Below the pieces are notes generated by a model. It saw nothing but the letters and a program-made list of their open reading frames with translations, searched no databases and was not told the origin of the DNA. Positions 59,057 to 59,767 of a stretch of 64,000 nt of DNA are shown here, piece by piece (within the stretch, counting starts at the first letter, position 1; each line of letters starts with the position of its first letter). The position numbers and the translations under genes are program-made. The stretch is from Candidatus Berkelbacteria bacterium CG10_big_fil_rev_8_21_14_0_10_43_13. Lineage in GTDB: Bacteria > Patescibacteriota > UBA1384 > XYA2-FULL-43-10 > 1-14-0-10-43-13. The stretch lies in the NCBI GenBank assembly GCA_002773985.1, contig PEZW01000009.1, positions 23,546 through 87,545 on the forward strand, read 5' to 3'.

Positions 59057-59094
59057 ATCAGCAATTTCACACGATCGTTTGAATTTGTTGATGT
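59057..59094. promoter_or_regulatory. 38-bp palindromic site CATCAGCAATTTCACACGATCGTTTGAATTTGTTGATG downstream of the regulator gene
   Basis: Imperfect dyad with a CACACGATCG core. Near-identical copy at 59729-59767. Confidence 0.45.
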
Positions 59095-59158
59095 CTTGCA
59101 TATGTTAGTGCATTCATTGTATTGAGATATCTCCTATTAGCGGTTAATGAACGCTACA

Positions 59159-59698
59159 TCATTTTTTATCTACAAACATATTTTCTAGTGTCGACTTAAT
59201 ATCGATTGATTCAACAATAGCGTGAACAATATAGTCCTCGACTCCATATTCCTCGGCAGCCAGTCTGACCATCTCGCCCAGATTTTTGTTTGAGACCCAG
59301 AGACTTTTTTGGATCTGTTTAAAGCCAAGTCTTTTGATAACACGACGGAAATTATCTCTTTTGGTTCTCAACCGTTCCGGAATATCAAATGAAACTAGAT
59401 AATATTTGCCGTCAATCACAGCCCTTTCACTCAGACGATCGACAATTGCCAGCCTAGCTTTGTTTGTAAATTGAATCGATTCTCTGCCGTTCGTCCGGCT
59501 TATTTCAACATAACCAAATTTTTTGAAACCATATAAAAACTTCGAAATATTTTTTACCGTTAACTCCTGTTCTCGATAATAGCCATGCAAATTACGGTAA
59601 AATTCCTTGCGATCAAAACCATAAATAATCGCCTCGGGAATATTTAGAAAAAAATCGAGAATCTCCACCGTCGTGTTCACAATTTTCTTTTTATCCAT
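59159..59698 (-). CDS. PaaX-like / Cas2-fold (VapD-like) putative transcriptional regulator
   Basis: C-terminal KYYLVSFDIPERLRTKRDNFRRVIKRLGFKQIQKSLWVS resembles the Cas2/PaaX_C fold. The N-terminus is winged-helix-like. Palindromic sites flank it on both sides. Family call tentative. Confidence 0.4.
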   Translation of the reverse strand: MDKKKIVNTTVEILDFFLNIPEAIIYGFDRKEFYRNLHGYYREQELTVKNISKFLYGFKKFGYVEISRTNGRESIQFTNKARLAIVDRLSERAVIDGKYYLVSFDIPERLRTKRDNFRRVIKRLGFKQIQKSLWVSNKNLGEMVRLAAEEYGVEDYIVHAIVESIDIKSTLENMFVDKK

Positions 59699-59728
59699 AA
59701 CTACATATTACAGTGTCAAGTAAATAAC

Positions 59729-59767
59729 ATCAACATTTTCACACGATCGTGTGATTTTACTGATGTT
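59729..59767. promoter_or_regulatory. Second copy of the 38-bp palindromic site (CATCAACATTTTCACACGATCGTGTGATTTTACTGATG) in the promoter region of the regulator gene
   Basis: Contains the perfect palindrome CACACGATCGTGTG. Lies 30 bp upstream of the ORF start at 59698. Confidence 0.5.

Follow-up and report, generated by a model that had tools for sequence, protein, structure and literature searches.

A protein of 179 residues encoded in the genome of a Candidatus Berkelbacteria bacterium, here called mini-PaaX, is probably a truncated PaaX-type autorepressor, which most likely binds the two palindromes flanking its gene to shut off that gene. Among about 100 related Patescibacteria loci that we surveyed, nearly every homologue has its own palindrome of 38-40 bp, on one or both sides, and a second cognate site shortly beyond the stop codon is part of this conserved module. 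This layout, in which a gene lies between two co-evolving sites and each paralogue has a distinct palindrome, appears to be undescribed; in the open-access literature, searches combining PaaX with Cas2 or with Patescibacteria, or Cas2 with winged helix and CPR, found no paper. The features discussed below lie in a stretch of 64,000 nucleotides, the window, and are as follows (a slash marks the dyad axis):

59727..59766, no strand assigned: upstream putative operator; on the gene strand ACATCAGTAAAATCACACGA/TCGTGTGAAAATGTTGATGT, arm complementarity 15/20
59705..59733, minus strand: putative mini-PaaX promoter, recognized by eye, with support from the family pattern
59159..59698, minus strand: mini-PaaX gene, an open reading frame of 179 aa (NCBI PIS07891.1, locus tag COT78_01510)
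59055..59094, no strand assigned: downstream copy of the putative operator; on the gene strand ACATCAACAAATTCAAACGA/TCGTGTGAAATTGCTGATGT, arm complementarity 17/20
22845..22884, no strand assigned: orphan site of the family type, TTGTCTACAAATATTCACGA/TCGTGGAAAATCATAGACAA, 15/20

Both sites at the gene are 40-bp dyads centred on CGATCG; the first-pass annotation had placed two flanking dyads at 59057-59094 and 59729-59767, within 2 nt of these 40-mers. The upstream site begins 30 nt beyond the stop codon of recO and extends to 28 nt ahead of the mini-PaaX ATG, with its dyad centre between 59747 and 59746, and the downstream site starts 64 nt past the mini-PaaX stop codon and is followed by TTTTTGTTTTG. 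Compared with one another, the two sites show 84% identity as direct repeats and 85% complementarity as inverted repeats, and their outer hexamers, at -19 to -14 in either arm, read CATCAR. The arm-complementarity score over all 64,000 positions of the window has a mean of 5.1 (sd 2.0) and is 15 or higher at only 8 positions. Moreover, the core CACACGATCGTGTG, with up to two mismatches allowed, occurs three times against an expected 0.13, a number reached in none of 100 shuffles.

The gene agrees with the 179-aa open reading frame, and the protein sequence, quoted in the first-pass annotation, and its neighbours in the window are recO, glyS and genes for an NTP-transferase and a glycosyltransferase. 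Pfam PaaX_M (PF20803) matches residues 95-166 (E=1.1e-17; 64.3 bits, for a cut-off of 24). Models for Cas2 itself come close and stay below their cut-offs: 22.8 bits against 23.8 for Pfam CRISPR_Cas2 (PF09827), 22.8 bits against 24.5 for NCBIfam TIGR01573 (cas2), and a sub-threshold E=8.7e-6 for the best PADLOC Cas2 model. The PaaX equivalog model TIGR02277 scores 15.9 bits, far under its cut-off of 264.55; PaaX_C gives no Pfam match even at E<=10, and the protein ends only 13 residues past the central Cas2-like domain (PaaX_M). In the AF2 model residues 99-174 form a Cas2-like ferredoxin domain, in the order b1 (99-104)-a1-b2-b3-a2-b4 and with pLDDT >90, preceded by a winged-helix region (recognition helix at about 48-60, then a b-hairpin wing at 64-77; pLDDT 74-83) and by residues 1-45, which are poorly modelled (pLDDT 42-63). 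The N-terminus is matched by none of the Pfam winged-helix models, and its profile similarity to the MarR-like proteins FabT (6JBX) and Lrs14 (6CMV) is weak (E 0.15-0.28). The top Foldseek match for the whole protein is E. coli PaaX (8A39; E=1.6e-4, 135 aligned columns), followed by the Cas2 proteins 3EXC, 5XVN_F, 8IA4 and 5ZYF with probabilities of 0.9-1.0; hhalign against E. coli PaaX is collinear across both domains and weak (E=0.11), and a PDB sequence search with the C-domain alone gave nothing useful.

The combination of a winged helix with a Cas2-like fold, proposed earlier from the sequence, is supported by the AF2 model and by the match to PaaX, for the winged helix only tentatively. 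The Cas2-like fold stands, with Foldseek placing PaaX first and Cas2 proteins next, but the homologous domain is the central PaaX_M and not, as had been suggested, the C-terminal domain of PaaX. A regulatory role for such a fold had been flagged as being of interest; the regulator reading is kept, but it is not new, since the Cas2-like fold of PaaX regulators is already known: Pfam titles PF20803 'PaaX protein central Cas2-like domain', and the UniRef name of mini-PaaX derives from that domain. Asp105, invariant in 29 sequences, aligns with the Asp of Cas2 3EXC, and both Asp105 and Glu108, which are invariant, fall where Cas2 has its acidic motif (FDIPE in mini-PaaX). A purely structural dimerization domain would not need these two residues.

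Across the family, 98 loci have both flanks available; dyads with a score of at least 14/20 were found on both sides in 65 of these, upstream only in 6, downstream only in 18 and on neither side in 9, and chance accounts for about 2.5e-4 per position. In 102 non-redundant sites the dyad extends from -19 to +19 around a centre, ACGA/TCGT, that is constant across the family. Each paralogue has outer hexamers of its own, with 26 bp between them (6+26+6); these hexamers are the most variable part of the site between paralogues, yet 91-100% paired. The downstream site is tied to the stop codon of the regulator, lying a median of 27 nt from it and often within 0-10 nt or across it, and the distance from there to the next start codon is 70-700 nt. 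Centre to centre, the two sites of a locus are 588-922 bp apart (median 668), with no 10-11-bp periodicity in these distances, a measure that is uninformative at such length. Where the two sites of a locus differ, the differences tend to be mirrored: 47 both-sided differences were counted against 16.7 +/- 3.4 expected, and 0 of 5000 shuffles reached 47. Several pairs, such as those of L020, L068 and L117, consist of two perfect (20/20) palindromes that are nevertheless unlike each other. No neighbour family is common to more than 5 of 79 distinct loci. In a distant clade (Daviesbacteria/Microgenomates) the sites are not long palindromes; there, in all four genes examined, a CGATCG-centred repeat is present twice, once in the interval from -35 to -10 and once at the stop codon, against a background of only 4-5 occurrences of CGATCG per 20 kb.

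Site and protein vary together, in statistics that are only partly corrected for phylogeny. Residue 115, in the Cas2-like domain, is either D or N and tracks site positions -5/-4: it is N in 31 of the 32 cases with R-A at these positions and D in 25 of the 28 with other bases, an association that spans 37 clusters defined at 60% identity. Among pairs of proteins 50-97% identical, the site class differs too in 119 of the 128 that differ at residue 115 and is shared in 131 of the 140 that are alike there. For the outer arm, the top mutual-information scores fall on residues 49, 54, 57 and 61 of the recognition helix. We take this co-variation as indirect evidence that the Cas2-fold domain may read duplex DNA, sequence-specifically, at the operator centre, an activity that to our knowledge is not a known property of Cas2. 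It also offers a recognition rule, in which D/N at residue 115 pairs with CACGA / GTCGA or RACGA. In the small genomes of Patescibacteria (CPR) few transcription factors are recognizable, and hardly any regulon has been defined by experiment; here, sequence data yield a predicted operator for each mini-PaaX paralogue.

The putative promoter of the regulator gene overlaps the upstream site. A -35-like hexamer, TTGATG (59733-59728), sits within the outer arm of that site, and a -10-like TGTAAT/TAATAT (59712-59705) ends 6-8 nt ahead of the ATG, which reads as TTGATG-17-TAATAT-6-ATG. This putative promoter is absent from a consensus scan because it matches the consensus at only 8/12 positions, under the threshold of the scan. 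In 14 family loci a TATAAT-like box (5-6/6) follows the site by 3-20 nt and precedes the start codon by 6-8 nt, and upstream sites in the family end a median of 28 nt ahead of the start codon. A -10-like box so close to the ATG would imply a leaderless or near-leaderless mRNA. Of the roles suggested for the dyads in the first-pass annotation, that of operators is supported by the family-wide co-variation of site and protein and by the promoter overlap, and we treat them as predicted operators.

Autorepression is the best reading because the upstream site overlaps the promoter. A homodimer of mini-PaaX would sit on the 38-bp dyad, its two winged helices reading the outer hexamers and its Cas2-like dimer core, placed over the dyad axis, reading the ACGA/TCGT centre and adjoining bases. 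As the upstream site would span the -35 region and the spacer of the promoter of mini-PaaX itself, whose transcript is probably leaderless, bound mini-PaaX would exclude RNA polymerase, resulting in negative autoregulation. The downstream site could be a cooperative second operator, forming a loop, a 3' roadblock or insulator, or an operator of the downstream neighbour. Autorepression alone does not account for the mirrored differences between the two sites of a locus, nor for why most loci have a second site close to the 3' end of the regulator gene; bracketing of a regulator gene by its own sites is a conserved design.

The closest characterized relative is PaaX of E. coli W (8A39), which likewise combines an N-terminal winged helix (putative in mini-PaaX) with a central Cas2-like domain (PF20803). 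By steric hindrance PaaX keeps its own promoter, Px, repressed; its operator, TGATTC(N27)GAATCA, is 39 bp long, and no structure of a PaaX-operator complex exists (PMC9493321). The predicted sites of mini-PaaX resemble this operator in having two inverted 6-bp half-sites (6+26+6 against 6+~27+6), and a Cas2-fold reading of the operator centre would bear on how PaaX binds its unusually long operator. However, mini-PaaX sites are palindromic over their whole 38-40 bp, around a CGATCG centre that is invariant, a second copy lies past the stop codon, and genomes hold several paralogues, each with its own site. Unlike PaaX (316 aa), mini-PaaX is without the phenylacetyl-CoA-binding PaaX_C domain and has no paa genes nearby; it keeps the acidic motif FDIPE, where E. 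coli PaaX, in a weak alignment, has LSEG. With MarR-type autorepressors it would share a small winged-helix protein, a putative homodimer and a predicted palindromic site over its own promoter; in contrast, its dimerization module is Cas2-like rather than the helical bundle of MarR, its operator is about twice as long, and there is a second site past the gene.

Family-type sites also occur away from their genes. A search for additional copies, which the first-pass annotation had proposed genome-wide, was run on the window and brought the family-type palindromes there to only three, the third being the orphan at 22845-22884, about 100 nt upstream of a gene of the AmmeMemoRadiSam-B/LigB-like (Memo-like) type (21939-22745, minus strand). 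Its outer arm, TCTACAAAT, is that of the sites of a paralogue, COT78_02390 (P0012, locus L037), assigned to the same MAG through the shared locus-tag prefix. The orphan is conserved in position at L119, a 74% orthologous locus. Three orthologues of the Memo-like gene stand without an adjoining family gene, one keeping the palindrome, and the orphan therefore looks like a target site and not a scar. Genomes carry 2-4 divergent paralogues, and 574 kb of flanks contain 9 extra family-type sites; orphans such as that at 22845-22884 are probably trans targets of mini-PaaX or its paralogues.

The downstream copy might instead be the operator of the next transcription unit, mini-PaaX repressing both itself and its downstream neighbour and the bracket being a by-product. 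We consider this possible, if somewhat doubtful; it is compatible with autorepression and concerns the second site only. The neighbour is co-directional in 35 of 58 loci and in all four of the distant clade, but convergent in the remaining 23 of the 58. Four loci (L100, L010, L062 and L081) have a third site of their own type after a cargo gene (DUF2703, UbiA), giving the order site-regulator-site-cargo-site, in L116 a repeat lies immediately ahead of the comEC ATG, and the orphan upstream of the Memo-like gene shows that family-type sites are not confined to the family's genes. The downstream neighbour in the window, glyS, is co-directional, and only a GC-rich insert, absent or different in relatives, separates it from the downstream site. 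Against this, the position of the downstream site follows the stop codon of the regulator rather than the next start codon, and the neighbours that would be regulated come from no family found at more than 5 of the 79 loci.

A role for the palindromes as nucleic-acid hairpins, either as intrinsic or bidirectional terminators for recO and the regulator gene or as DNA cruciforms, instead of or besides binding protein, is unlikely. Either site might fold into a stem of about 19 bp, both lie shortly past stop codons (recO and the regulator), with TTTTTGTTTTG after the downstream one, and each keeps its own symmetry, as the mirrored differences and the perfect yet different pairs of L020, L068 and L117 show. 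An RNA hairpin under selection should, however, show a G:U bias in its mismatches and is disfavoured because there is none: on the sense strand, G:T and A:C mismatches number 14 and 11 in upstream sites and 19 and 26 in downstream sites. Runs of T past the site are inconsistent between loci; the distant-clade sites are non-palindromic yet still duplicated at both gene ends; ordinary terminators would have no family-specific invariant CGATCG centre and no arms that co-vary with protein residues; and the 64 kb contain only three such sites. At the gathering threshold Rfam found nothing but tRNAs, and its matches around the mini-PaaX locus were noise. A DNA cruciform is compatible with all of the tests run against the hairpin.

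We regard as highly improbable the idea that site, gene and site make up a small selfish or mobile cassette, with the repeats as recombination sites, as the first-pass annotation had also suggested, or as cleavage sites, and with the Cas2-like domain as a nuclease acting at CGATCG. The gene is indeed bracketed by its own repeats, which are direct where orientation is readable (L114-L116), paralogues are several and divergent, neighbours are not conserved, solo sites exist, and the invariant Asp105 and Glu108 lie where the catalytic Asp of Cas2 is found. In addition, unrelated DNA begins directly past the downstream site when the window locus is compared with L007, L029 with L047, or L067 with L068, the last two being 99.3% identical until 18 nt past the site. 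The L068 difference, however, is an insertion with transposase-like ORFs, which indicates no more than that insertions are tolerated in, or drawn to, this region. Mobility is disfavoured because the cassette still follows recO in an orthologue of only 66% identity, as it does in one of 93%; no near-identical genes were found in different contexts, none of the 79 loci links a recombinase or transposase to the cassette, and a regulator explains directly why the upstream repeat coincides with a promoter. One apparent relocation, L005, in which an identical protein seems to have a different context, was rejected: the break falls inside glyS, so the contig is probably chimeric. REPtrons, RAYT (HUH/Y1) transposase genes flanked by cognate REP palindromes (Nunvar 2010; Bertels & Rainey 2011), are similar in that short, lineage-specific palindromes stand on both sides of a single gene and several gene-palindrome families occur per genome. 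They differ from mini-PaaX, which has no HUH/Y1 transposase domain and whose upstream palindrome overlaps a promoter, and REP palindromes are dispersed in tens to hundreds, unlike the few family-type sites counted in the window and flanks. GC-rich islands lie beside the cassette in 7 of 104 cases against a 2.8% background (p=0.03), a weak enrichment; they are mostly unrelated to one another, except for a conserved 270-aa ORF in L007 and L117.

Least credible of all is that the Cas2-like domain is an active sequence-specific DNA reader and processor that nicks, cleaves or remodels the repeats flanking its own gene, the two FDIPE acidic motifs then being placed at the dyad axis over the invariant CGATCG. 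If true, it would also cover the solo sites and the unrelated, often GC-rich, DNA past the downstream repeat, and repeat, gene and repeat would form a self-contained element, either a new selfish cassette or a relative of an ancestor linking Cas2-fold proteins to palindromic repeats.

A link of mini-PaaX to CRISPR was considered and rejected. Like Cas2, it has a ferredoxin fold, an Asp after b1 and G-x-x-x-Q-x-S in b2-b3; unlike Cas2, its domain is fused to a putative winged helix, the 64-kb window holds no array of spaced direct repeats, as had been noted at first reading, and no cas1-like neighbour or other recurrent neighbour family is conserved among the 79 loci. A defence or phage origin was likewise set aside, PADLOC giving only the sub-threshold Cas2 matches and PHROGs no matches. 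The family is large: clustered at 50% identity, it falls into 63 clusters with a limit of E<=1e-30 and into about 1,500 with E<=1e-10. Its genes should not be counted as cas2 in CRISPR surveys of the CPR; many carry the annotation 'hypothetical' or the misleading 'CRISPR-associated endonuclease Cas2'.

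The gene for mini-PaaX, the same 179-aa protein that the first-pass annotation had quoted (NCBI entry PIS07891.1, COT78_01510, Candidatus Berkelbacteria MAG), lies between two 40-bp palindromes:

59797-59799, recO stop codon, 30 nt before the upstream site on the gene strand
59766 to 59727, upstream site, reading ACATCAGTAAAATCACACGA and TCGTGTGAAAATGTTGATGT on either side of the dyad centre (gene strand), then 28 nt to the ATG at 59698
59159-59698, minus strand, mini-PaaX ORF, 179 aa
59159-59161, mini-PaaX stop codon, then 64 nt to the downstream site
59094 to 59055, downstream site, reading ACATCAACAAATTCAAACGA and TCGTGTGAAATTGCTGATGT on either side of the centre (gene strand), then TTTTTGTTTTG

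The two 40-mers share 84% identity, their arms are complementary at 15/20 and 17/20 positions (window-wide score mean 5.1, sd 2.0), and the core sequence occurs three times in the window against 0.13 expected; palindromic sites on both flanks of the gene, as claimed from the first reading, are therefore real. Homologues were found only in Patescibacteria MAGs and in metagenomes, in a family that comprises, at 50% identity, 63 to about 1,500 clusters. Two to four paralogues are frequent in species-representative genomes, and the MAG of the window has at least two family members, the second being COT78_02390. We collected 106 loci and scored the 40-bp dyads adjoining the gene. A dyad of at least 14/20 was present on both sides in 65 of the 98 loci with both flanks available, upstream only in 6, downstream only in 18 and on neither side in 9; many were perfect (20/20). 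The site-gene-site bracket is confirmed as a real feature, common across the family.

The protein itself combines a winged-helix-like N-terminus with a Cas2/PaaX-like fold, as had been proposed from its sequence. Pfam PaaX_M ('PaaX protein central Cas2-like domain') matches residues 95-166 (E=1.1e-17), and the UniRef name of the protein is already taken from a PaaX-like Cas2-like domain. In an AlphaFold2 model built on an alignment of 29 homologues, residues 99-174 form a b1-a1-b2-b3-a2-b4 ferredoxin domain (pLDDT >90), preceded by a helix (48-60) and a b-hairpin (64-77), as expected of a winged helix (pLDDT 74-83); residues 1-45 are uncertain. The top Foldseek match in the PDB was PaaX of E. 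coli W (8A39), with many Cas2 structures next. Invariant alignment columns concentrate in the Cas2-like domain (S103, F104, D105, P107, E108, R114, F117, R118, K122, Q128, Q130, S132, L133 and W134); D105 aligns to the conserved Asp of Cas2 3EXC, and hhalign against E. coli PaaX gave a collinear but weak alignment, with LSEG opposite FDIPE. The protein is thus a homologue of the first two domains of PaaX, but is not PaaX proper, as it has no Pfam match to PaaX_C, no paa genes and a score far under the equivalog cut-off (15.9 bits against 264.55 for TIGR02277, full-length PaaX), nor is it a Cas2, as the Cas2 models scored slightly under their cut-offs and there is no cas or CRISPR context. Several of the homologues P0012, P0035, P0058, P0254, P0318 and P0328 carry the name 'CRISPR-associated endo(ribo)nuclease Cas2' (NCBI, JGI or UniRef), with no CRISPR context evident; cas2 may be over-counted when CPR genomes are surveyed for cas genes.

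The anatomy of the sites was derived from 102 non-redundant sites (50 upstream/downstream pairs), as the locus set includes duplicates; half-sites are numbered outward from the centre, from -1 to -20. Arm pairing was 91-99% at -4 to -1, 75-87% at -13 to -5 and 91-100% at -19 to -14, and fell to background beyond -20. The centre, A-CGA/TCG-T (the slash marking the dyad axis), is almost invariant, with a minority of CGTACG, and positions -12 to -8 are exclusively A/T. The outer hexamer (-19 to -14) shows nearly no consensus between paralogues, yet is identical in both copies of one locus. The family site is two inverted 6-bp half-sites with 26 bp between them, the same half-site geometry as in the E. 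coli PaaX operator, reported as TGATTC(N27)GAATCA (PMC9493321).

Mutual information between alignment columns and half-site positions, over 62 distinct protein/site pairs, was highest for residue 115 with positions -4 to -6, and was also high for residues 49, 54, 57 and 61, in the predicted recognition helix, with -19 to -14. Residue 115 is the D/N of R-D/N-x-F-R, in helix a1 of the Cas2-like domain. N115 was paired with R-A at -5/-4 in 31/32 cases, and D115 with CACGA, GTCGA or xGCGA in 25/28; the association persists across 37 clusters at 60% identity and distinguishes even a close pair of loci, L009 and L043 (75-77% identical), one with D and cgTCGA, the other with N and ggACGA. In the window, the protein carries D115, and CACGA stands in three of the four half-sites. 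Chance appears unlikely because residue 115 and the site class switched independently many times, although the statistics are only partly phylogeny-corrected. This co-variation is good indirect evidence that the family protein binds these sites, the winged helices reading the outer hexamers and the Cas2-like core the centre.

The upstream site lies a median of 28 nt from the start codon. In 14 loci the site is followed after 3-20 nt by a TATAAT match (5-6/6), itself 6-8 nt ahead of the start codon; the mRNAs would then be leaderless, and the operator would cover the -35 region and spacer. The putative window promoter (TTGATG, inside the operator arm, 17 nt, TAATAT, 6 nt, ATG) matches the consensus at only 8/12 positions and was absent from the consensus scan output. 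Within the superfamily, a distant Daviesbacteria/Microgenomates clade has its CGATCG motif flanked by a perfect TTGACA and the -10 box. Occupancy of the site would occlude the protein's own promoter, as described for PaaX at Px (PMC9493321); negative autoregulation is the natural inference, and the window protein would in this respect work like PaaX.

The downstream copy lies a median of 27 nt past the stop codon, often at 0-10 nt or overlapping it. It may be a cooperative second operator (loop), a roadblock or insulator, or the operator of a neighbour. The last would not hold generally, because the neighbour is convergent in 23 loci (co-directional in 35) and no neighbour family recurs among the loci compared; it probably applies in some, and three loci (L100, L010 and L116) have a site-regulator-site-cargo(-site) layout. 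Mirrored differences between the two copies of one locus were both-sided in 47 cases against 16.7 +/- 3.4 expected (0/5000 shuffles reach 47), which argues that each site is maintained symmetric by itself. Selection for an RNA hairpin was rejected as the reason, since on the sense strand G:T mismatches are not in excess of A:C ones and T-runs are inconsistent. The repeat of the distant clade is asymmetric; it occurs as two direct copies of 15-34 nt, of which the 3' one overlaps the stop codon, so the duplication at both gene ends is older than perfect palindromy. The repeats of this clade, CGATCG-centred, in the promoter and at or over the stop codon, are:

L114, 9986/10519
L115, 9981/10507
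L116, 3912/4459 and 9978/10524

These three loci are without a long palindrome; in L116 the -10 TACAAT is reused in the 3' copy, TGA thereby becoming the stop codon. Outer hexamers differ between the two sites of loci L014 and L117, which suggests cross-regulation between paralogues. In L117, an orthologue of the window locus, both sites are perfect (20/20) and share the inner half:

4932-4971 and 5625-5664, L117 sites, outer hexamers AGTCTACA and CATCCATA

That the palindromes are recombination sites of a small mobile cassette, as also suggested at first, was not borne out as regards an active element. The cassette is downstream of recO in the window, in the orthologous locus L007 (93% aa, about 78% nt identity) and still in L117, at 66% aa identity and with an additional NUDIX gene in between, and no pair of similar genes in unrelated contexts was found among the collected loci. 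Homologous locus L005 (ENA k141_730710) has a regulator identical to that of the window, and its GC island, and departs from it at position 2048, inside glyS, continuing with Bro-N, PfkB and AdoHcyase genes; a chimeric assembly or a strain rearrangement is the likeliest cause, and the break is no evidence for mobility. Catalysis at the sites by the retained Cas2 acidic motif, and with it a more unusual self-contained element, would be very improbable. The variable distal DNA and the solo sites leave some probability to mobility. Among related loci, similarity ends either at the downstream palindrome or up to about 20 nt past it, with unrelated DNA beyond:

L067 3617 and L068 2299, 99.3% identical up to 18 nt beyond the site, then transposase-like ORFs in L068
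L029 4572-5420 and L047 3557-3697, distal stretches of 850 and 140 nt
window 58307-59054 and L007 4644-5778, distal stretches of 694 and 1135 nt before glyS resumes

The outer cassette edge behaves like a hot spot for insertion or replacement. Distal stretches are often GC-rich, an enrichment that is statistically weak. In the window they comprise:

58430-58940, GC-rich island between the downstream site and glyS, GC 0.54-0.56 against about 0.40 around
58488-58871, plus strand, ORF of 127 aa, convergent with the regulator
58905-58935, strong, GC-rich, terminator-like hairpin

The island content had no Pfam, PADLOC or PHROG match. L007 and L117 carry another GC-rich ORF instead (270 aa, 57% identity to each other), likewise without matches.

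A family-type palindrome also occurs away from any family gene:

22845-22884, orphan palindrome with a 15/20 score, centre CACGATCGTG, some 100 nt upstream of a Memo/LigB-like gene
21939-22745, minus strand, AmmeMemoRadiSam-B/LigB-like gene

Its outer arm, TCTACAAAT, is that of the sites of COT78_02390 (locus L037, same MAG), and its inner CACGA is the type accompanying D115, the residue that the regulator between the two window sites has. An orphan palindrome occupies the same place in a 74% orthologous locus (L119, 2373-2412) and is lacking from two more distant orthologues. We read such orphan sites as putative trans targets. The first L117 outer hexamer equals the arm of this orphan.

That a repressor can contain a Cas2-like fold is not new. 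No paper was found on a large CPR-specific two-domain family, on 38-40-bp operators that are specific to each paralogue but share an invariant CGATCG centre, on a recognition rule involving the Cas2-like domain (nor any report of such a core reading an operator centre for PaaX or Cas2) or on conserved bracketing of a gene by its own sites; the family, its predicted operators, the rule and the bracketing appear new.

Two other repeats were seen in the window:

23338-23424, AT-rich array in which some six units of 8-9/17 nt overlap (ACTTTAYAAACTTTTTA), immediately upstream of a small gene (23043-23306, minus strand), DUF5661-like by synteny with homologous locus L121
31087-31212, about 5-6 mostly perfect tandem copies of a 21-nt unit (TTGATGGTGTCGACAAGCGTC), probably an in-frame 7-aa repeat inside a gene
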